A DNA stretch of 63,103 bases, filler included, from Basidiobolus ranarum (Eukaryota): NCBI GenBank assembly GCA_040143965.1. It is 3 parts of 3 records of this genome, joined end to end, with 100 filler letters (N's around TTAATTAATTAA, not from the genome) between each part and the next. Parts side by side here need not be neighbours in the genome. Positions count along the whole stretch, not along the records: positions 1 to 21,030 come from JASJQH010000215.1; 2 more parts are not named here. One strand, given 5' to 3'. The notes beneath the pieces are model-generated. The model had not been told where the DNA came from, made no database searches, and saw only the letters and a program-made list of their open reading frames with translations. Position numbers and translations under genes: made by a program. Shown piece after piece: positions 11,304 through 42,168 of the stretch. How positions within the stretch are numbered: position 1 is the first letter of the stretch; every line of letters begins with the position of its first letter.

Positions 11304-12316
11304 ATGCTGTGTGTTTATATTTTAGAGAATTTGACAGGAACTACCAGAACCTATGTAGGTTTCACAGTGGACCTCCGGAGACGCCTAAGAAAGCACAATC
11401 GAGAGATTGTAGGGGGGGCGAGAGCCACCGAAGGTAAATATTGATTACTTCGTTTATAGCTAGTCAGTATTTGACGATAAACTTTCTAAACTACGAAGGT
11501 CGTTTATGGAAGCCATTTCTAGTGGTTACTGGCTTCCATACCAAGAAATGTGGGCTACAGCTTGAATGGAGAATAAAACATCCCCCTAGAACATGGTCGC
11601 AGTCGCGCTCAACATCGAAAGTATCGGGTCGTCGACGTCGTCGTAAGAATAATTCGAAAAGTATTATATATCCAAAATCACTATTCCCTCAAGCCAAACC
11701 ATCGAATATTTATAAAGAGAAATTTGTCAAAGTTTCTTGTGCTAAATTATCCAAAAAACTGTATCTAGCACATGCAGTATGTGCTATCCTACACCTTGAG
11801 AAGTGGACCACAAATGCCATCCCTCTAGCTGAACAGGGGAATATAGTACTCCACTGGGATGAAATAGATGATCTGAAGTCCATCAAAGCTCCATGGCCAG
11901 AAAGTATCGAACATAAGCAATTCGATTGGGCAAATTTCATTACTCAACCTTCGACCAGAGTCAAAAAAGATACCTCTAAGGATTCTATTCAAACCTCTGA
12001 CACCCCGTCTCAAGAGTTCGTATTAAACATGCGAATTGATCAGGATATCAATACTCAATCGGATGATATACCTCCGAATCCAGAAGACTCTTCCTTTGCC
12101 TCGCCATGCACCGATTCCTCTGCATCGCCCCTGACCCCATACAATCAAGATCACAGCCAGATTACGCCAGAGTCTCCTCTGCAAGCGAAATCTAAAAGTT
12201 TTCTTTCCGAGTTGACTCAACCACTACCTTCACCAGAGATCCCGCTGTTTGGTTTAAGACGATCACCAAGAATTAAGCGTTTGAACGAGAGGTTACTAGA
12301 TGAGGCCAGGCTATGA
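11304..12316 (+). CDS. Slx1-like GIY-YIG structure-specific endonuclease, 2 exons (intron 11434-11498)
   Basis: Exon 1, absent from the ORF track, reads MLCVYILENLTGTTRTYVGFTVDLRRRLRKHNREIVGGARATE. It splices in frame to GRLWKPFLVVTGFHTKKCGLQLEWRIKHP. YVGFT, RRLRxHN, GGA and LQxEW are Slx1 motifs. Confidence 0.88.
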
Positions 12317-12945
12317 ATTCCTTTAGAATATTGTCTTATTGATAAAATACTAGCTAATATGGAAAGCAATTCTAATTCAAAATCCCTCACTATATCCCAG
12401 ATACATTCGAAATAATGATAGGAAACTCTGGCTTAGTTTTAATTATATCGTCAATGGAAAGTCATAAGGTTAGACGACTTTGGTCCGTAAGTTTAATGGT
12501 TTTGAATTTAAAGGGTCTACTTGTTGAGCTATAAAATCTGCGCTCTTGATCTTTAGCCCTAGAAGATATTAGAGATGTACAGGATCATATTTGTGAGCAG
12601 ATATGGCATTAGGTGGAGATATCATTGTCTCCAAACTTGTATAACGAGCGTTACGTTTTCTTGAACCACATTGTACTGTATATATGATATTGGATGATTT
12701 AATCTAAAATATACGCCTCATATGGCAGTATCAGATATTCGCAGACTTGATCGGTTTCAATCCAATTTACACAATTATGTTGACGCATGGTCAAACGACG
12801 GCCTGATGGAACAGGTCTCATATATTTTAACTGCACAGTTTAATGAACATTGGTTTGCGACCTGAGTAGTATTGAGCTAAATCATTATCAACCAGTCTAT
12901 CCAAAACAGTCAAAGCGGTATTCTAATTTCAGGTTAGGAGAATAC

Positions 12946-14400
12946 TGTTGAAATATTAGAAAAAATTAGCGATTATTCATATGTATATTTCCTTAATATT
13001 TCATCAGTCAAAATCGTAATATCAATTTTGGATACATCACACGAATGTTGAGATAAAGCAAGATTTTCGAACTTGTCCAAAACTCTCCACCCTTTTTCAT
13101 CAACCTCCTTAACACTGTAGAAATATATCCCTGCTGATATAGATATCTATTTAAAACTTGTTGAAGTTTATTGCTTTTATCATATTTGTTATCCCTATCT
13201 TTATACACCTAACTATCCGATTTATAGCTATGTACTAAGCAATACAACATATATTTAGCGTATCTGTTAATTATTCAACTTGAAATTTCAAAGTAGTCAA
13301 GATTAACTCTAGGATATTCCACATCCACAGATGTTTTAAACACAACCATATTGCTCGTTTGTGTATTTCCACCACAAAGGATAGATACGACACCTTACTT
13401 CAATTAATACACACCTCTCAAGTTTATAATATCTCCATTTCTTAAATGCTCCTTCACAATGCTCAAATATTCACCATAAAGCTCATATAGTAAGTGGTGC
13501 AAAACTTCTACTCCTTCCACTAATCCTAAACACTTCAATTCATGCTAAATACTTACTACGTAAATACTATACCCTGAAAATGTTGTACAACCATATTTTG
13601 CACTTTTATTAGCTCCAGTATTCCAGCACTGAGAATTCTCTATTATTCATAAAAGCACCAAGGATATTCCATTGGCAATCATCTCTACTTATATGTTTCT
13701 TAAAATATTGATCCACGTGCCTATTTCATATTGAATCTTTACTCGGCAATATATTAAGAGCATCAAGTTTGTATTGAAACATAGACATCAATTGTTATTT
13801 TTTTTCCTGCCTTTATACGCCTAACTGTTTCACATATAGTATCTAAGTTAGCCAACATTGTCTAGTCATATATCACATGGTTCATACTTGGAGCATACAT
13901 TTAGGATATATGTGAAGTATTCAGGAATTAGAAATTTCAAACCTGAAGCTTCAGACTGATTCAAATCAGCCCCAGAACTGCTCATTTTCCTCCCACAGAT
14001 GTTCCAAACCTAGACCCATTGTTCGCTCTCAACAGCACTCACAAAGGTGCAAATGCTTTATTTTTGGTCAAAGAAATGATAATTCTCACATTCTGAGTAA
14101 CTCTATTTCCCAAAAATTCTTTTATCAATATCAAACTCACTCAAAAAGTCTAAACTTGTTATAACAGAGTATAAATGTGCTGTCCAAGAAATAATCGAAT
14201 TGAACTTGAATTTCAAAGTCATCCAGGTTTGCCTCCCCCTCCACCCAAAATGGCTCATATTACTCCGATAGGTTTTCTGAGCTTAAACTTGAGTTATTTT
14301 TTGTTTTATCTACAGAAGTAAAGCTACATTAGTTCTGTGACTTAAATCAACATATTGCAGGCTCAAAATCCCTTCATTCCTTAATCTTACTGAATATCAC
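12946..14400. mobile_element. Possible decayed transposon relic (AT-rich, no intact ORF); boundaries approximate
   Basis: Begins TGTTGAAA like the LTR-like repeats. Contains two diverged copies of a ccacagatgtt..aaac....attg.tcg....cacaaagg motif (~13325 and ~13994). A minus-strand translation near 13500-13720 gives a stop-interrupted VDQYF...SVLEYW...SKYLA, weakly resembling a hAT C-terminus. Confidence 0.3.
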
Positions 14401-16633
14401 TGAAGGTTTACTCTAGGTACCACATATAACCATACAGCCAACAAGTCCTCTAAATTATAATGTCAACGCGCTCTTCCTTTGTATGATGTCAACCACTACC
14501 TAGTGTCTTTCAAGATATTTTGAACGTTCCAATTTAATGAATTATAAAAAGTGATAATCGGGTGGAGATTGTAGCTGGTAAATATGGTGTGGCATTATGG
14601 AAATATAGGAACATAATCAGCCATTCAGGTTCTTTTGGGTTCAATAGCAGCACAAACCATGATATGATTGTTCATTCCAGTGCCTGGGTTAAGGTATGAA
14701 TAATCCTGCTTGTACAATCAACAATTCATGCAGTCAGCATTGTATGCTAATGAGTAAGCAACTTTATACGCTTGTCCTTTGTTTTCAACAAATATTTTGT
14801 CAATTCGATACCCACAGATCCGTCAATGAAACATGTGTGTTAGAAAGTATACCGCAAATCTGATTTCTACTACGCGCAGTAGCTGTCTCCCGAGGTTTAA
14901 GGGATTGCGATGCGAAAGCGATGTGACAACATACAGAGACAGTCATGATCATGAGCTACAAAATATTAGTTTCTATTTACTTCCCATGTATGTGCTGACT
15001 TGATTCTCAAATATGTGGCCAATCTTATTCAACCTCATTCGACACAAAGCCTAATACATTCCTTGATTATTTACTGGAAAGTGCTGCGAAGCAAAGAGTG
15101 CATACAGAGATTCGATATCTCATCGAATGACTACAGACGTCAAATATACGTACTCCTAAAGAGAGTTTGAAAATCAGCAAGGTACACTAACCGTAGCGAT
15201 TCGTAGTGGATTTGAGGCTTTTTAGAGCAAAGCCCATTTCTCACTTGGTATAATGGAGATTATTGAGAAAGATTTCATTCTAGCTTACTAATTAGAGTGT
15301 ATATGCGCATATATAGACCTATTCAATGCTGGCAACAACTAACTAAGACCCTGCGGACCTATGAAAGGAAATATGTTATTAGATATTACCAAGTGAACGA
15401 ATGGGCCATTTGCCAAATGCTAGTAATATCTTCCATGTTTCAAGGGATTTCGCCATCATATGACAAGTTGGCCTTGGTTTTCGAACATAAATAGATGCAA
15501 ATATTACATAGATGAAGTTATAATGTCATCTAATACCGTTAAACGATTGACAACTCATGCATTGATGTACAGGCACATCCATTCTTTCGTGTTTCTATCC
15601 TAGATTTGATCGTGCGATACTCATTGCTCATGCATGACTAGATTCCACAGTCTATATTCGTATGAAAGGGTGATATCTAGTCATCAGATTCAATGCACTA
15701 TTTATATGCACAGATGCATCTACGAAATGCAAAGATCAATATATTCATGAGCCAGCTGTAAGTATCCAACTCGAGCCTCGTCCACAGCACTCATGTAAAG
15801 TCACATTGATTAATAGGCCTCTCAAATGACTCAAAGCCCATTCAAATAGTCAGATTCGAAATGTCATATGAGAGTCAGATGCTTGCTTAATCTAAACGGA
15901 GTGCATATCAGTATAAATGGGGCCATTGGGAAAATTCCCGGATAGACTTGTGATGATGGTCGCTGCTCATAAATCGTGCTTTTGAAGCCCAATATTACTT
16001 AAATCGTGATGAGTAAACCGCAAACTATGTATTCCAATGTCTTCTTGCACAGTATGAATCTTGAAGCCGGAAATCCGGAGTGGCCTGTTGCAAACTCGAA
16101 GTTACATTCTGTACAAACCAGCTAAATGACATTTCATTATCGAGGAACATTTTGCGAATTTAGTATCATGTTATTATATATTACTATTCCGCAAGACTTG
16201 TGATGCGTGCTTTAACTAAGCTCAGAGTGCCTCGATCAGAAATTACAATACTCTAGCTATTTATTGCCATCTTACTTTATTTCAATATCAAAACATTTCT
16301 GACATGGCCCGCTCACTTACAGATATTTACTTGACGATATCTATGCTAAGTGTGCTTAGAATCTTTCAGGCATATTATATCCAGCACAACAGTACACTTG
16401 CCACTGGAGTTTTAAATTGTACTACGATTGTATATCGTGACGACTAGTCGTAGACTTTCAACAATCTAGCTAGCTATAGTGCTTATCAGTCTATTAACCT
16501 CAACTTTACAATATGGAATGTTTGTTTATTTAGTTAGATAATGGTATGAGCATTCACTAGTTCGTCACTGATGTGAGCAACAAAATGATAATATTGAGGT
16601 CAATCTTACACAAGTCAGGCTCTCAAGAACCCT

Positions 16634-16840
16634 TTAAAATCCAATGCCGTATTTATAACCCAGCCTATGATATCTAGGACGTCGACCTGTCACAGAACCC
16701 AGAGAATTTGCGGTTTTGGGGATCCTGGAGGTGTAAGATTTCAACCGGCTTGTTAATCTCTTAACTCTGTTATATGAAAGGAATTGACTACTCGCAACTA
16801 GACCGGAAAATATGATTAGAAGTAGTAGGGGAAGGGACAT
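16634..16840 (-). CDS. 68-aa microprotein with N-terminal hydrophobic segment and C-terminal PRYHRLGYKYGIGF
   Basis: Intact ORF, TATATAAA ~65 nt upstream, and a paralog 1 kb away with the same C-terminal motif. Confidence 0.75.
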   Translation of the reverse strand: MSLPLLLLIIFSGLVASSQFLSYNRVKRLTSRLKSYTSRIPKTANSLGSVTGRRPRYHRLGYKYGIGF

Positions 16841-17804
16841 TATTAGTGTTTCGAAGTAGGGTATGTGTGAGATGATTTAAGATTATACCAGGAGAAGTCC
16901 GGGCTTTATATACAAGTAGTTAGCTAAACTATGATCGCAGCAATGCTCAAAACATCCATGAATATTCCCTGACAGGTGACAAATATGATCTCAAGTTCAA
17001 TTCAATTAGTTCAGGTCCTGAGCCTGCTACGTTAAAGGAACCTCGCTTGCTGTTTAGTATAGATGTATTGATGGTTTTTTAGTTGCACATATTGGTTATT
17101 ATAAACAGTATTCAGCTTGCAACATACATTGTAACTCTCGAGAAACGAATAAAGTGATAAGCAACAGGTATTTTACTCATTCAGATTTTCTACAGGTAGG
17201 AATAATTTGATGTTCAGTTGAATGTTGTACAGATTCCATGCAAGTAGAAATGCTATGGCGCATTGATATGGGCTAACATCATGATCCATGTTTCTTATCC
17301 ACCAGAGGGTGTGATACGTGCTCTGTGTATCTTCGATTAGGAGATTTGGCCAGGCTTAGAAATCGAAGCGTGATTTTACAATCAACAAAGAGATCCCAGT
17401 GTTAGTTTTCGTTAAAATAAATGGATGCATAGTTGTAGTTTGCAATGGGATGGTAGGGCTAAACTATCATGTATGTTGCATACTGCCAACGTGCAGAGAA
17501 ATTAATTTAAGCCATTTTATCAGTTAATCGTGGTATTTGCATAGAGTAGGACTTCATTTGTTTTATTCGTTATAATTTATACAGGGCTGAGGTAGAGTAT
17601 TCAGTCTCATATGGAACCATGAGCTAGTTGCCATGATAAGAAGAGAAAATATTGTGGGATAGACTCCGTTATGTGTAAAGAACAAACTTCTGTTATATGG
17701 AGTGGCTTAGACACGAAGATATTGTATTTAGCAAAATGGCATGGACAGGGGGGACTGATTGTACTCATTTTCGCCTGGAAAATAGCAACGATATCAGAGT
17801 TACT

Positions 17805-18002
17805 TCAGAAGCCTACTCCATACTTGTAACCAATCTTATGGTATCTCGGTGACTTGTGACTTTTCGTGAGTAAAGCAGTTGATTTAGCCACTGAGGGCAG
17901 CCATTTGTGTGGAAGAGCAAACAACTTACGTCTGATAGAGACAAAAGTATGAAGTAGGCTCAACAATATGGAAAAGATCAGAAATGTATAGGCAAGTTCC
18001 AT
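17805..18002 (-). CDS. 65-aa microprotein with N-terminal hydrophobic segment and C-terminal PRYHKIGYKYGVGF
   Basis: ATG at 18002 (MELAYTFLIFSILLSLL), TATATAA ~55 nt upstream, and the motif shared with 16634-16840. Confidence 0.75.
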   Translation of the reverse strand: MELAYTFLIFSILLSLLHTFVSIRRKLFALPHKWLPSVAKSTALLTKSHKSPRYHKIGYKYGVGF

Positions 18003-19235
18003 GTTCACTAAAAAGGTGGGTTAGTGTAGTATGACTTTGTTGGAAGAAGTGTGCAGCTTATATACCTTTTGCAATCTGATTTTTAATGTACTTGGAAGAT
18101 ATCGAATCCGAATCTGGCTATTCTATGCACTGTTTCTAACATAGCATAAGAAATGATACTAGAACTACGAGAATTCGCTCGTTAGCTACATACATTTGTA
18201 CGCAACAATACGCGCAGCTGATACATGAAGCATTCACACTCATGTTTTTCAATCGCACCAGGGGTAAGAGCTACTACGCTTCCATACAAATCACTCCAGC
18301 TGCTTAGGGAGCGTCATTTTGATTTACCTCAAAAGGAGTAAATCCTGATCAACAGACTATATTTTACTCATTCTTTTGGATGCTTTCCCGGAGTCTACAT
18401 GGAGATTGGTAAAACAATGACTGCAATGACGACACTCGTCTAAGCAATACTCACAACATGCAATCGGTTATAATGCTACATTATTCTTGCGATCGAAAGA
18501 TGCTATCGGAAACACCTCAAAGAATCGTTTCAAGATTTAAAACATTTTCACCAGATGTGATGATTCTGAGAATAGATAGGCAGTGTCTTGGCTCATTTCC
18601 AACTGATGCATCTAATTGTCACAATGTAACATCGAAAGAACAGGGATTGTCGGCTAGTCTGTCCTATTAACTGCTGTCTGCTTAGATACCCTATTCATTC
18701 AAATACACTAGTCAGTTTGATACCAATCAGAGTTGGCGTCATAGCATCTCCCTTACTTGGTCTGAGGTGCCCACAAATTGAGAATGGCTGCACGCAAAAT
18801 AATGACTTGAGTATGATGTAGTTATGAGGTACTTTCATATGGTTCTCATTTGACATGTCAATCGTTGTTAAGCTGCAACTGAAGATTATGAACGTTTGAA
18901 GGGATATAGGATGTATGCACAAGTTTCATAAATAATATTAACCCCATTGTATAGGTAGCCAATAAGAACAAAGATGAAAAGTCTTTTTATGCCTCCTGCC
19001 TGAGCATGAACAATTTAAATATCAGAACAACTTCAATCAAGCCTGAGCCATATTAGGAATCAATCAATCTTGCTAATAAACTTTTCACAGATGAGAATTC
19101 TCTAGTCTAGAGATGAAAAGCTCTGGAAACATGCCTACTAATACAGTAATGGTAAAAACATTGGACATTAGATATTGTAAAATAAAAATTGGCCAAGAAC
19201 AATTACAGAAAATCAATTTTATCTAACCACATATT

Positions 19236-19563
19236 TGTTGAAATTAGCATTGCCTAAACACCTATATAGTCATATATAGCTTAGTACTTAGTTATCTTAT
19301 AATTCACCAAGATATTATCCATTATTCTCAATTGGAATTTACTTAGAATATTTTTCACAACTTAGAAGTTCTCAGATATATAGATTTTTCAAACTTGTGC
19401 TAGAAGCCCCAAACTTTGCACACATGCTCCTGGGACCTTCCTTAACACATTCTACATGTTTGTTTGTTTGCATCTTGACAAAACTATAAATGTCAACTTT
19501 CTACTCAATAAATCAACAAGTGAAAACCACCAATTCCTCTAATTCTCCAAACCACTTCCAACA
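19236..19563 (+). mobile_element. LTR-like repeat (TGTTG...CAACA), copy 1
   Basis: Starts TGTTGAAA and ends TTCCAACA, with an internal CTATAAA (~19485) and AATAAA (~19507). The first ~210 bp match 41875-42068, and similarity starts exactly at the TG. No matching target-site duplication (TSD) seen. Confidence 0.7.
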
Positions 19564-20431
19564 GGCTCCCAAATACTTTAACATATTCAAGTACCTAAGT
19601 ATCCATAAACCATGTTTAGCATGATCAATATTCAATTAGCTAGTATTTTGTGAGTCTAAATCTTCACACAAATTTTGGATATATCTGAAACTTTCACACC
19701 AATGCAAAACTCCACAGATTTTAACCCCAACATCCTGCTAATATGCTTCTTCAATTCTGACGTAAGTGCAAATAATTATTTTCAATTCAATAAAACAAGT
19801 GCAAATTACTTATTTATTCTAATTACCCTAAACGCTTCCTACCCATCTCAGAAACTCACAACAAAAACAGTTAATTATTGTATATGCAAGCTTCACGTGC
19901 CTCCACTAAGATAAATCATTTCAGACTTGAATGTTTTACTAATCTTTGAATATGTTTTCTAAATCTGAAAATCTGAAAATTCTTGATCTAACGAAGAGTA
20001 AATACATTATGTAGATCATTCTTTAGTGCCTACCAGTGCTTACATTTTCCAACAGTAACAACAGCCCGGACTGGTACTTATTGGAACTTGCGATTACTAG
20101 ATTGTTCACCATGTATTATATTCCATTTGACACATCTCCTACTGCTAATTGTTTTATTACAAATGCCAAATTAAGATATCTAATCATTAATGTCTAATAC
20201 ACGAGATTCTGCGTTAAGAACAAACTCCCTGTAACAACACAGTCAAAAAGAATTGGAGTTTACAGAATCAGGATATATATATACAAGATTCTAATGAAAA
20301 GCATTTGGATTGCTATGTATAAACGAGAGTATATTATATATGAATGCATAAATGAACAAGCAGACATTGATATCGATTTAGAATTGCTACAAGGATAGCA
20401 GAAACTTGAATATTCATTCCTTTAGATATTC

Positions 20432-21030
20432 TTATAAAATTGTACAATACGAGGACCAAATTCTCTCAGGATAACGATTCTCTTCGGTGAGTTCATCCCA
20501 TTGCGTACCGTACATCCAAAAATTGAAGTCTTTCTTTTCATACTGTAAGTGTACTTTACTCAATGACAAAACGTCCACTGATAGTCGTTGTGCCAGAACT
20601 CTTTCATATGACGACCCAGCAGTCTGATTTCGAGAATTGGAGGCAGAGACAACATATCTGCAAGCGTCCATTATATTATCAGCTAAAGCAGCAGAGTCAA
20701 ATGCAACACCTGGTAACTCTTCTTTATCGACGTTTACATTGTAAGTTAATGGGATATTTGTAATTGTAATTGGGTGAATCACCGCGAAAGGTAAATATCT
20801 GCTTTCCTTATAGCCTGAGGTTACGATCGAGCCATGGTTGCTTTTTTCCCAGATATTAGCACTTGAGCCCTCACGCTCCCGCCACAATTCAAAATCAGCC
20901 ATGTCACGCGCAACAATGTGGGAATTCTCACGAGTTTTAAAATGAACCATAACAAAACTGCTTTTTTTCAGTAACCCACTACCATGACAGTCCTTCCATT
21001 TGCTCCGGCCAGTATGATTTCAATTGGAGC
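20432..21030 (-). CDS. SSUH2-like protein, 3' part only (truncated by the spacer), with CaaX terminus
   Basis: The frame extends upstream of the listed ORF as SN*NHTGRSKWKDCHGSG (degenerate CxxCxGxG repeats). It ends FWMYG...YPERIWSSYCTIL, resembling the SSUH2 C-terminus as I recall it. Confidence 0.65.
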
Positions 21031-21130
21031 NNNNNNNNNNNNNNNNNNNNNNNNNNNNNNNNNNNNNNNNNNNNTTAATTAATTAANNNNNNNNNNNNNN
21101 NNNNNNNNNNNNNNNNNNNNNNNNNNNNNN
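21031..21130. other. Artificial assembly spacer (N44-TTAATTAATTAA-N44)
   Basis: N run containing a six-frame stop linker. Confidence 0.97.
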
Positions 21131-27822: not shown

Positions 27823-29273
27823 CTAAAATGTGGTGGGGAGGTCTTTGTTTACATTCACATGATGCACTTGCTCGAGGTTTTTGCTCTTCTTAGCGTGTCT
27901 AAAGGCTAAAGCTTGTCCAAATACGAAACCGATAAGGATAAGGCATACCCACGCAATGTAGAGTCCTACCAACACTTTTGACGCTGTAACAAGCTTAAGA
28001 CCTAAGCCGATGTTTACCCAGGCCAGGAGTACAGTCGATCTTCCAAGCCATTGGTGCATATGCTCATACCAGGGGGACTTGGGTCTGTTTGGTTTCCAAA
28101 GTTTGTTCATGACAAAACCCAAGACAATTTGACAGGCCATGGCTAAAAGAACAACCAAGCCTATAATCTGCATATCGAATGAGGATTAACTTACTAGCCC
28201 TATGAGACGAGGGTCAACTGGATAAATGGTTTACCTGATGTGATGTCTTGAAATGATTTCCCTCACTTAAGATAATCCCTAAGACAATGGCGGTGATAGT
28301 GAAAACTGCTACCCCACCAAACATTACACCTCTGTGAACTATGAACCACTTGTCCCATGTAGGTAGTCTCCACTTAAAATATCTCGCAATAAATACCCTG
28401 ATGATTGGGATAGAAAATCTTAGTAAATGGTATGGAATGTATCAGTCTCGACTAAATTACCCAAATGGCGCGAAAGCAGCCCAGGCAATGAACATCAATG
28501 AGGCTAAATTGTAAGGCGCACCGTTGTTTTAGTTGATGACAGCTTGTTCAAAATAGCAGCAAACCTCGCTTACCATGTGCCAACATCATCGATCTTGCTG
28601 CTTTATTCTCAGTGGCTTGTCCAATGGATCCGGGTTGGGACAGATCAAGTGTGAAAGTTCCTTTTGAGCTGTGAGGAATAATATTTGCAGCAACTGAGTC
28701 AGAAGTAGGTCTTGTAGCACTCACAGCCCAGATGAAATCTTTGGTATCTTTTGTGATAGGAGAGGCATTAGTGGTGTTCGGCTGTTGTAAACGTCGAAAG
28801 TTTACGATCATTCGATTGGTTTGGCTGTTAACTCCACTTCCTCCTAATAGTTGAACGTTTTGTTCGGCATTAGCAGTTGGTTGTACATGTCCGGTGGATT
28901 TTCGGTTAGAGAGCACCATTTGGTTTTGAGAACCTAGCCAGGAGATCTTAACAGATTTTGTGATTAAAAGATGTTGGCATAGAAAGTATGTGAATGTGCT
29001 TCTACTTACATACATGTCAGCGTCCCTCATTGACTGACCAACACCCATGGCCACCCAGCTAGATTCAAAGTTCAGTAACATAGTATAAGGGCACTTATAT
29101 AACTAAATAAGAATATACCCAGTGGTAGGAGGAACCTCCATTTGGATATTAGCATATCCATCATCAGTAAGGTCTATGTTAAAGCACGCATCTTGCGAAC
29201 AATATTGACTAGACATTGTAACTTGCAGAGCGGTGGTAAGTACACCGATTAGCTGGATTAGGTTACGAAACAT
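27823..29273 (-). CDS. DOMON domain + cytochrome b561 membrane protein, multi-exon
   Basis: Signal peptide, WVAMGVGQSMRDADMY (DOMON), then b561 histidine motifs LAHG, WFIVHRG, TSHQIIGL and HMHQWLGR. Confidence 0.9.
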
Positions 29274-33785: not shown

Positions 33786-35360
33786 TTAGAATAAACAAAG
33801 TACCAAGTATAATGTGATGAAAAGGGAGGATGTTGAGCTGATGGTGAGAGATATCGCACTGCTATGTGGCACTTTGTTGTTCTGGTTTTGGGTACCAGCC
33901 AATCTTGCGCAATTAGTAGTGTCTTGCTTACTAGGGGTCACAACTGCACTCAAACCATCGAAATTACAAACAGTTTCCTTCTCACCATTCTTGGTATAAT
34001 ATTGATTAAACATATAAGACAAGCGTTGAGGTGTATCACAGGTAGAATATACTCCATAAGTACCAGTCTCACCATTGCTAGAGATAGCATCACAAGACGC
34101 CTCCCCACAGAGCCAGCTAAATAACTTCCCTACATCTACCGTAGTTGAATTGGTAGGTTTGGATGAATAGGCACATTTAAGTGTATCGGTCATACATTTA
34201 CAGACATCCTCCGAAGGTGTGCTCGGGAGTTTCGTACTGGCTTTCCAAGCGGCACCAACTTGTGGGCATTGGCTTGGCTTTCGGTTAGGATCAGCTGAAA
34301 ATGTATCCATATTCAACACCTTTGGACTGACTGCTGATAAAGCATTCTTGTAGTTATCGTAGTCGGGTCTTTTGGTCACTTCGCCGCTAGAGCTAATATT
34401 TACCAATCCATAGTTGTTATCTTCTTGGGAATACTCATATACGATCCCTCCAGAAAATGTATCCTCCATATCAGGACCGTAAATAGATTTAACTTCGTGG
34501 AAGCTACGCACGCCGCTAGTATTACAGCCATATTCGCTCAAAAAGATGGGAATGCTATAGTCGGCATATTCCTTGGTTCGATCAGCAAACCCGGAACTTT
34601 GGAAAGTCGCTTGATCCCCACACCAAGAGTAAATATTGTAACCGTAAAAATCGGCCTAAGTTCAAAACAATTAGTATATATGTATGATATAGTGCACAAT
34701 GAAATAGCCTTCACTTACCCTCTCAGAGTCATCACCACAGTTGAAATAGTGTGCGATATCAAGTCTAATATCAGCATCATCATTGGTTGAGTAACCGATG
34801 GGAATATACCTCGGCTTGGTACGCATATAGGCCTTCATGTCACGAATAACAGCTTTGACAAAGGGAGAAGAGGAGGTTGTAGGAATATCATTAGGAACCT
34901 CATTACCGGCAAAGAAACCAAGAACATTGTTGTATTTCGCGAAGGCATCTGCTGTCTTCTTGTAGTTGTCAAGTAAATCTATGTCATACTCAGGATCCTT
35001 ACGATTGATCGAGTAAGTAGGTGTGGCAATATCCAATACCAGGTAAATACCAGCATCTTCCAAGGCTTTCATACACTCATCGTGATTCAGAGTATGATCA
35101 ACCTGATAGACTCGAATAGTGTTAAGGCCCAAGTCCTTGAAGTTCTCGATGTCACGCTTACAGGTAACAGGATTTGCAAGTGGATCGTCCGATGTTCCAC
35201 GCGCTCCTCCTCGAGGCTGGTACGCAACACCTTTAATATAGAATTCGTTTTTGGTGACGCTGTCAAAGAACTTGTGTCCCTTAATAACAATAGGATTCAA
35301 CGCAGATGCTGAAGAAATATAAACCAGCGAGATCGCCGACAGGACTGATAGAACTCTCAT
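33786..35360 (-). CDS. GH72 1,3-beta-glucanosyltransferase (Gas1/Gel family) with X8/CBM43 domain and GPI signal, 2 exons
   Basis: FYIKGVAYQP, LGLNTIRVY, FFAGNEV, SEYGCN, FSGGIVYEY, Cys-rich X8 domain, hydrophobic tail; intron ~34657-34718. Confidence 0.96.
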
Positions 35361-36828
35361 GTGAATTAAAATTAAGATGGCTGGTTGTATATCCTAGTGT
35401 GACACCTTTTATATGGCAGGAAGCCATGTAAACAAATTCAAGTGTATATATAACGACATCGATTCTCGAAGGCCATTGGCTATTTGTTTCCCGCGAATTT
35501 CCAATTCAATCTGGCCATATATATATATATATAGAGATTAGACGTAACAGCTGCTATAGGCAGCCTATAGATTCTAGAAGACTTTGATTGAGCACATCAT
35601 GGTCAGCATTTCAATGCACAGCCATATCGAGTCTAGTAATAGAATTCTTTTGAATGCAAATCATTGAACTGAAAGCTTGATAGACTGGTGCCCAACTTTG
35701 TGCAAGATCCGCTCTCTGGGTTCACTTGCAGAATAGACATCTTTCATCAGCTGCTGCATCCAAAAGTGGATACCTCTCAGCGCCCATAGAGGTATATATG
35801 GTGTAAGGCATGCTGGTTGCTCGATCTAGGACTACCTATCTTGCAAGCGCTTTCATTGCAAGAATTCCTCAAACAAGTCATTATTCTGCAACCAGCGCGT
35901 CTGATTGAAGAAGCTTCATGTAACTAAACATTGAGATGAATCGCGATTGGTTGGCAAGGAAAATTGAAAAGTATCTCCAATCGATAAAACCGGATTAATT
36001 GACAAAACCAAGCTATATCCTGACATATCGAGGTAAATAGATTGAAGCCACATTATCGATGCGTTGCGTGCAAGCCAAGTGCACCTTGACATTAACCTGC
36101 AGGCCCATGTCAAAAGGTCATGCCATCAATGGCCAAGCCCTGGTCTACTGCTCCACTGTCAAATGATCTTACTTGACTATTGTCGTCAGCCTTAGTTAAC
36201 TAATAAAATCGAAGGGTATCTCGGTTCGTCAAACACTTCTCACAGTCTACATCGTGCTTGGTTCTAATTTAACAAATGTTGAGGTTGTTTACGCTTCCTG
36301 AATTCATCTAACTGGTTCGTTGAGACGCGCGCTCTATGACGTAAGAGAGTGGGTGAATGTAGCTGCTGAACTACTAGAGAATTTCTGCTGTTTCGGAATT
36401 TATCATCGACCTCTCTGTTTGGTGTGGTGTCATGTATTCTTTGTCACGTGAGAAACATTGCGATAAATCTAAGAGGTTAATCCAATCTAACTCCTCCATG
36501 GAAATTTACGGATTCATGAATTTTACAATTCTAAAATAAGGAGCTTTCAATGTTAATTTTATGTTACGGCCAAAAACCATTAACATAACCTTACTAATTT
36601 ATTTGTAACATCATTCCCTATCTTACCTTTTTCAATCATCTAGACCTTCTTTGACTTCTTATACTAGTTTAGTACCCCTTCAAAACCTAAAGAACCTTCC
36701 CTCTAAGCCAACTCGCTCTAGACCCAAAGCTATTTGGTTTTGAAATATCCCTGAACTGAGTAAGACTAGTCGTAGTACCGGGCTAATAGCAAAGAGCATC
36801 ACAAGTCACTTTACTTTAAAAAGATATC

Positions 36829-42068: not shown

Positions 42069-42168
42069 NNNNNNNNNNNNNNNNNNNNNNNNNNNNNNNN
42101 NNNNNNNNNNNNTTAATTAATTAANNNNNNNNNNNNNNNNNNNNNNNNNNNNNNNNNNNNNNNNNNNN
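42069..42168. other. Artificial assembly spacer (N44-TTAATTAATTAA-N44)
   Basis: N run containing a six-frame stop linker. Confidence 0.97.

Follow-up and report, generated by a model that had tools for sequence, protein, structure and literature searches.

The locus examined here raises a simple question: are two very short open reading frames (ORFs) in the genome of Basidiobolus ranarum, which resemble each other mainly in their last 14 residues, genuine genes, and if so, what kind of protein would they encode? The window, i.e., the whole stretch of DNA that was analysed, is 63,103 nucleotides long (assembly GCA_040143965.1), and both ORFs, which we refer to as A and B, lie in its first part. 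The initial annotation had described them as two co-oriented ORFs of 65-68 aa with near-identical last 14 residues, and both the coordinates and the identity of 11 of the 14 residues were verified:

16634..16840, minus strand: microprotein gene A, an ATG-to-stop ORF of 68 codons plus a TAA stop
17805..18002, minus strand: microprotein gene B, an ATG-to-stop ORF of 65 codons plus a TGA stop
16637..16678, minus strand: conserved C-terminal motif of A, PRYHRLGYKYGIGF, 11/14 identical to B
17808..17849, minus strand: conserved C-terminal motif of B, PRYHKIGYKYGVGF, 11/14 identical to A

The ATG of A and the stop of B are separated by 964 nt. The ATG is preceded by an in-frame stop at a distance of 12 codons in A and 6 in B, and the start context includes an adenine at -3 in both ORFs and a guanine at +4 in B. 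The consensus of the two tails is PRYH[RK][LI]GYKYG[IV]GF-COOH, with the replacements R/K, L/I and I/V, and in both ORFs the stop codon follows the 14-residue motif directly. A six-frame regular-expression scan of the window found the motif only at the ends of A and B, and tblastn revealed no further copy in the window.

Is this similarity a matter of chance? The tails are more similar than chance would allow: among the 19,503 pairs formed by the 198 ATG-initiated ORFs of 40-120 aa in the window, A and B share 11 of 14 terminal residues, and the next best pair shares 6 of 14. The 13 nucleotide differences within the tail are distributed 2/1/10 over codon positions 1, 2 and 3 (hypergeometric P = 1.3e-4 for at least 10 of 13 at third positions), and 8 of the 14 codons differ only synonymously. 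Third positions are saturated (10/14 differ), whereas first and second positions differ at only 3 of 28 sites (binomial P = 3e-11). Nei-Gojobori counting, applied to what is a single pairwise comparison of 14 codons from two sequences, gave a pN of 0.11 for the motif, a pS beyond the saturation limit and a pN/pS of about 0.10, compared with a pN/pS of 0.70 for the remaining 51 aligned codons. The low pN/pS and the third-position bias together indicate that the tail peptide has long been under purifying selection, in this frame and on this strand, as had been proposed at the outset from the many synonymous differences. Codon usage, by comparison, speaks neither for nor against coding: the scores, 0.10 bits per codon for A and 0.06 for B (ranks 45 and 62 of 160), are intermediate, with background small ORFs at 0.03 +/- 0.12 and known genes at 0.25 +/- 0.11.

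Conservation is limited to the tail, again in agreement with the initial annotation, since the parts of A and B outside the motif align no better than shuffled sequences (the score of the real alignment is equalled or exceeded by 1565 of 2000 shuffles). With tblastn the match can be drawn out to 31 residues, 48% of them identical. When the DNA of both loci was aligned with 300-nt flanks, similarity was found only in the last ~45 coding nucleotides and in the region of the TATA box, and a local alignment of the 150 nt downstream of A and B did not rise above background. What the two proteins do have in common outside the tail is a layout, in which a hydrophobic start is followed by a basic cluster and then by a basic linker; the hydrophobic N-terminus and the basic, variable linker reported earlier are thus present in both ORFs (Kyte-Doolittle means of ~2.0, net charges of +12 in A and +9 in B).

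16775..16834, minus strand: hydrophobic N-terminal segment of A, approximately residues 3-22, best 19-residue Kyte-Doolittle mean 2.07
17934..17996, minus strand: hydrophobic N-terminal segment of B, approximately residues 3-23, Kyte-Doolittle mean 2.04

There are no acidic residues in A and one in B, and cysteine is absent from both. A hydrophobic N-terminus combined with a net charge of at least +8 occurs in 3 of the 198 small ORFs of the window: in A, in B and in an ORF that belongs to a cytochrome b561-like gene. The flank preceding the hydrophobic stretch is neutral or acidic (MS-, ME-) and contains no K or R in either ORF, and KR (A) or RRK (B) directly follows the stretch. The uncharged stretch of B comprises 21 residues, which is a transmembrane length; in A, the residues VAS-SQ, which resemble a signal-peptidase site, come after a short hydrophobic core (~14 residues). 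The N-terminal segment of A is a candidate signal-anchor or signal peptide. AlphaFold2 models, built on a two-sequence alignment, predict a helix at residues 3-37 of A (pLDDT 86-88 over the first 20 residues) and from residue 2 in B (pLDDT 90-94 over the first 20 residues); the predicted helix continues through the basic cluster in both proteins, and after the first 20 residues confidence is low. One element of the initial description stands only in part: basic sites were said to precede the motif, and A has KR at 27-28 and RR at 53-54, the latter abutting the motif; in B, RRK at 24-26 is the only such site, and the residues before the motif (...SHKS-PRYH) include no abutting dibasic site.

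Another question is whether the ORFs have promoters of their own. A TATA box at a similar distance from both starts had been noted, and TATATAA indeed precedes the ATG by 72 nt in A and by 62 nt in B, within a block that can be written in the same form for both genes:

16893..16913, minus strand: TATA-box block of A, GTATATAA-N7-ACTTCT, 72 nt upstream of the ATG
18045..18065, minus strand: TATA-box block of B, GTATATAA-N7-ACTTCT, 62 nt upstream of the ATG

This block was derived post hoc from A and B themselves, and its exact recurrence is therefore circular. TATATAA at -100..-40 occurs in 3 of 197 small ORFs of the window, and in the 40 nt after the box A and B are identical at 17 of 40 positions, compared with 10.6 +/- 2.6 in 153 control pairs taken from other TATATAA sites, 2% of which reach this value. 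These two controls, which are less circular, provide moderate support. A generic local alignment of the 100 nt upstream of A and B did not rise above background, with 547 of 2000 controls reaching or passing the score of the real pair.

The initial annotation recognised no named family, and searches of Pfam, the PDB and protein clusters likewise produced no true match. No Pfam family was found for A or B at E<=10, and a profile search of the PDB at E<=10 returned no match for either. In 5.8 billion clusters searched by word index, there were 0 matches to A alone and 0 to the A+B alignment among proteins of near lengths, although this type of search requires three common 5-mers, of which A and B have just one, and is weak here. 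Among longer proteins (120-2000 aa) of the same collection, 624 candidates were scored, none with the motif at E<=10. A phmmer search of B against 1.84 billion representatives yielded three matches at E<=0.001, which were rejected as translated repeats or repeat-rich sequences matching the linker and not the motif. Searched as a DNA pattern, Y-H-x-x-G-Y-K-Y-G-x-G-F was found 0 times in metagenome, prokaryote-genome and viral contigs. The looser pattern G-Y-K-Y-G-x-G-F, together with T-R-R, gave 15 metagenome loci, all of which were discarded as chance: 4 end in TGG instead of a stop, and 0 of 15 show a PRYH-like context or a small ORF with a hydrophobic N-terminus. Three of these loci (L001:51-77, L005:7109-7135 and L013:8427-8453) are one sequence, VHGYKYGVGF*, in a frame that stop codons interrupt shortly before it, and were likewise taken as a chance match; the identical sequence with its stop sits in three metagenome contigs from different records.

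An exact look-up showed that A and B are absent from a collection of 15 billion proteins. The same collection contains a 749-aa protein of the middle contig of the window as a singleton 90% cluster (NCBI/UniRef), with no relative at 90% identity or more in the collection. The genome has therefore been annotated, and A and B were not called. In a protein language-model atlas, the nearest entries to A are small secreted prohormone precursors, with a score of at most 0.82 that one third of shuffled proteins also reach; B has no usable match there. In the portions of the literature available to the search, longer substrings of the motif are absent and 'GYKYG' appears only in reviews of amphibian peptides and in one engineering paper. 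A motif of 14 residues is too short to reach significance in E-value searches of this size, and since the collections contain no bulk unannotated fungal small ORFs, the absence of relatives is weak evidence.

The window consists of three contigs joined end to end (1-21030; 21131-42068, 20,938 bp; and 42169-63103). The length of the middle piece is exactly that recorded for the contig of the 749-aa protein. The spacers at 21031-21130 and 42069-42168 have the form N44-TTAATTAATTAA-N44 and are artificial six-frame stops; synteny across them is therefore not real, and the true neighbours of the pair are only those in 1-21030. These include a nucleoside transporter fragment, a Snf7-family ORF and an ORF with a fungal AreA GATA-like domain. 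The nearest long ORFs are one of 195 aa at 20432-21019 on the minus strand, which reaches the contig end, and a Ser/Pro-rich, basic one of 292 aa at 11438-12316 on the plus strand; neither has a Pfam family at E<=1. In the ~8 kb around the pair (12300-20430) there is no ORF of at least 100 aa, no Rfam family and no sizeable repeat, and six ORFs of 75-85 aa in this interval have no Pfam match. Compared with the rest of the window, the region holding A and B is unusually empty. The contig ends at 21030, ~3 kb upstream of B.

The other two contigs carry ordinary fungal genes, including GH72+X8, PL14, GH18, GH20, AGM1, a mitochondrial carrier and others. The GH72 glucanosyltransferase (with X8) appears as two minus-strand ORFs, 33786-34655 and 34671-35393, that lie ~15 nt apart, presumably because of a short intron. 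On the same strand, a cytochrome b561-like ORF adjoins a CDH-cytochrome/DOMON-like ORF (27823-28185 and 28548-29102), and the two are probably exons of one membrane ferric-reductase-like gene; the first of the two ORFs is the only small ORF besides A and B that pairs a hydrophobic start with a basic composition. Rfam has no family anywhere in the window.

What, then, would A and B be? The reading that we prefer, with a probability of roughly 0.42, is that they are real, unannotated protein-coding genes, namely old, lineage-restricted tandem paralogues encoding membrane-anchored proteins with a C-terminal docking motif. Each gene would have its own TATA-box promoter and no intron; the TATA boxes, together with in-frame stops upstream and the hydrophobic N-termini, are most simply accounted for by single-exon genes. 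Their products may be composed of three parts: an N-terminal hydrophobic helix of ~20 residues that would insert into the membrane; a fast-evolving, very basic, disordered linker of ~30 residues; and the strongly constrained 14-residue C-terminal motif, which would be the functional module. According to the positive-inside and charge-difference rules, a basic cluster after a helix and none before it orients the helix N-out/C-in. Because both proteins lack positive charge before the helix and carry a basic cluster after it, this is the orientation that their charge distribution suggests, and the segment would then act as an uncleaved signal anchor. The tail would be cytosolic and membrane-tethered, presenting the motif as a short linear docking site. 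The analysis establishes the ORFs, the selection on the peptide, the common architecture and TATA box and the lack of relatives in the collections searched; that A and B are expressed, have this topology and bind a partner is what we infer.

The initial annotation had left a choice between peptide precursors, possibly RiPP-like, and single-pass proteins. The precursor part of this proposal loses ground because there is no dibasic site at the motif of B, only one core per ORF and no tailoring gene among the ORFs scanned, and the single-pass anchor now appears slightly favoured. An anchor with a cytosolic tail is slightly favoured over a secreted precursor because of the charge distribution, the 21-residue stretch of B, the predicted helix that runs through the basic cluster, and a Y-x-x-hydrophobic element. 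The last of these, Y-x-x-[LIVMF], is kept in the same column of both tails (A: YHRL, residue 57; B: YHKI, residue 54), and the motif ends in a free aromatic C-terminus in both.

Membrane proteins such as TGN38 (YQRL) are known to carry tyrosine-based Y-x-x-hydrophobic sorting signals in their cytosolic tails. The tails of A and B would resemble such signals in that YHRL and YHKI occupy the same position and the tail is predicted by the models to be flexible and membrane-tethered; the difference is that four residues suffice for a sorting signal, whereas the constraint in A and B spans 14. A second comparison is with the yeast proteins Pmp1 and Pmp2, which have a single N-terminal hydrophobic helix and a short basic cytosolic C-terminal tail in about 40 aa, and for the first of which Pfam probably has a model. 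Homology of A and B to them received no support, as there was no Pfam match and no PDB chain at E<=10. By analogy, both pairs would be very small paralogous fungal proteins associated with membranes, in the case of A and B by prediction; A and B are longer (65-68 aa), with a disordered linker of ~30 residues and a distinct Tyr/Gly-rich terminal motif. Pmp1p and Pmp2p of Saccharomyces cerevisiae associate with the H+-ATPase, and their double deletion halves its specific activity (PMC6521590). The two yeast proteins thus act via a larger membrane protein, and a comparable partner for A and B can be suggested only by analogy.

The alternative that survives best, possible in our view but rather unlikely, is that A and B are secreted precursors. 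A cleaved ER signal peptide would then be followed by a basic pro-peptide or by part of a cationic mature peptide, and the product, either the C-terminal 14-mer or a ~40-residue basic peptide released after KR/RR(K), could serve as an extracellular signal or as an antimicrobial, effector-like or RiPP-like peptide. For A, the short hydrophobic core followed by the small residues VAS|SQ favours secretion over an anchor; the uncharged stretch of transmembrane length in B argues the other way, as does the basic cluster placed after, with no positive residue before, the hydrophobic stretch of both copies. A dibasic site occurs past the hydrophobic segment at an equivalent position in the two proteins (KR 27-28 in A, RR 24-25 in B), and RR also abuts the motif of A, but none is found by the motif of B (SHKS-PRYH). 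Conservation confined to a C-terminal peptide is what a mature-peptide model would predict, although each ORF contains a single core without repeats. The atlas places A by secreted prohormone precursors, at a score (<=0.82) that a third of shuffles attain, and offers no usable match for B.

Lineage-specific small secreted proteins, or candidate effectors, are a recognised category of fungal proteins. A and B are like them in being small orphan genes in a gene-poor region, with a hydrophobic N-terminus and fast-diverging tandem paralogues; they differ in lacking cysteines, unlike most fungal secreted effectors, in being extremely basic, and in being kept only in the C-terminal peptide.

A closer precedent for secretion would be the Kex2-processed precursors (KEPs), which one account (PMC7329392) describes as combining a signal peptide (SignalP-positive) with highly repeated cores cleaved by Kex2. 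The cores of ustiloxin (YAIG/YVIG) and phomopsin (YVIP) are given there as a Y-x-I-x pattern, and a gene for DUF3328, a cyclisation factor needed for the cyclic ust-type products, has been found near 22% of KEPs, on average 3.09 genes away (PMC7329392). A and B share with KEPs and UstA an N-terminal hydrophobic segment of the ER-targeting kind, dibasic sites and a short Tyr-containing core. Both ORFs have a hydrophobic N-terminus that may correspond to the KEP signal peptide, with that of A appearing cleavable and that of B looking like an anchor of transmembrane length. KEP cores are repeated, whereas A and B contain one motif each, and KR/RR flank the core in KEPs, whereas RR is found only at the motif of A and none at that of B. 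Y-G-I-G (A) and Y-G-V-G (B) recall the Y-x-I-x cores (PMC7329392); YGIG of A fits the pattern, as a four-residue resemblance, and in B the place of the cyclised Ile is taken by Val. A scan of 29 of the 33 ORFs of at least 120 aa, plus 6 smaller ones near the pair, turned up no gene for DUF3328, a tyrosinase, a methyltransferase or a protease; the scan was limited by the contig end ~3 kb upstream of B, and intron-split genes could escape it. Membership of A and B in the KEP or ustiloxin type, as delimited in PMC7329392, was not supported on these grounds: no repeated cores, no dibasic site at the motif of B and no DUF3328 gene among the ORFs scanned.

A more doubtful reading is that neither ORF is functional today, the tails being relics of a once-selected coding sequence, or kept for another reason, and the ORFs being unexpressed. 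It would fit the lack of homologues in the collections searched, the missing annotation of A and B in an annotated genome, their codon usage, which is not clearly gene-like, and their location within ~8 kb (12.3-20.4 kb) without recognisable genes. Relics should decay evenly, however, and here 25 of the 28 first and second positions in the motif codons are preserved although the flanking DNA is at random-level identity. In addition, the stop falls at the same place in both ORFs, neither reading frame is broken, the two have a common architecture, and a TATATAA box is kept at a similar distance in both; Rfam has no RNA family in the window.

Still less probable is that each motif is the last exon of a longer gene, the two genes being paralogous and their upstream exons having gone unrecognised. 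Introns do occur in fungal genes of the window, e.g., in the GH72 gene split at 34655/34671, and the contig ends ~3 kb upstream of B. The initial annotation had itself named the last exon of a longer gene as the outcome that would count against it, and searches of the upstream segments and of longer proteins gave this no support: the best tblastn match between the regions upstream of A and B has E = 0.69, the best blastn match is 14 nt long, and the motif occurs in no protein of 120-2000 aa (624 candidates, E<=10). Both ORFs, moreover, start with an ATG and a hydrophobic segment, with a TATA box 62-72 nt upstream. Equally improbable is that A and B belong to a new class of fungal ribosomal peptide precursors with one core each. 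Tandem one-core genes, in place of a single gene with many repeats, would then each release a cationic Tyr-x-Tyr/Y-G-[IV]-G peptide from the C-terminus, possibly carrying a tyrosine cross-link like that of ustiloxins, and the genes for tailoring enzymes would be found past the end of the contig or in another part of the genome.

Returning to the preferred reading, of membrane-anchored tandem paralogues with a docking motif, A and B most likely represent a new family of a familiar kind, i.e., lineage-specific, small, N-terminally hydrophobic microproteins. The evidence presented here does not tie them to any known pathway; fungal genomes are rich in orphan small ORFs, and on present evidence the pair is a modest, organism-restricted curiosity. 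If expressed, A and B would be two genuine genes that annotation overlooked, and they would show how a microprotein family with only 14 constrained residues can escape every homology search.
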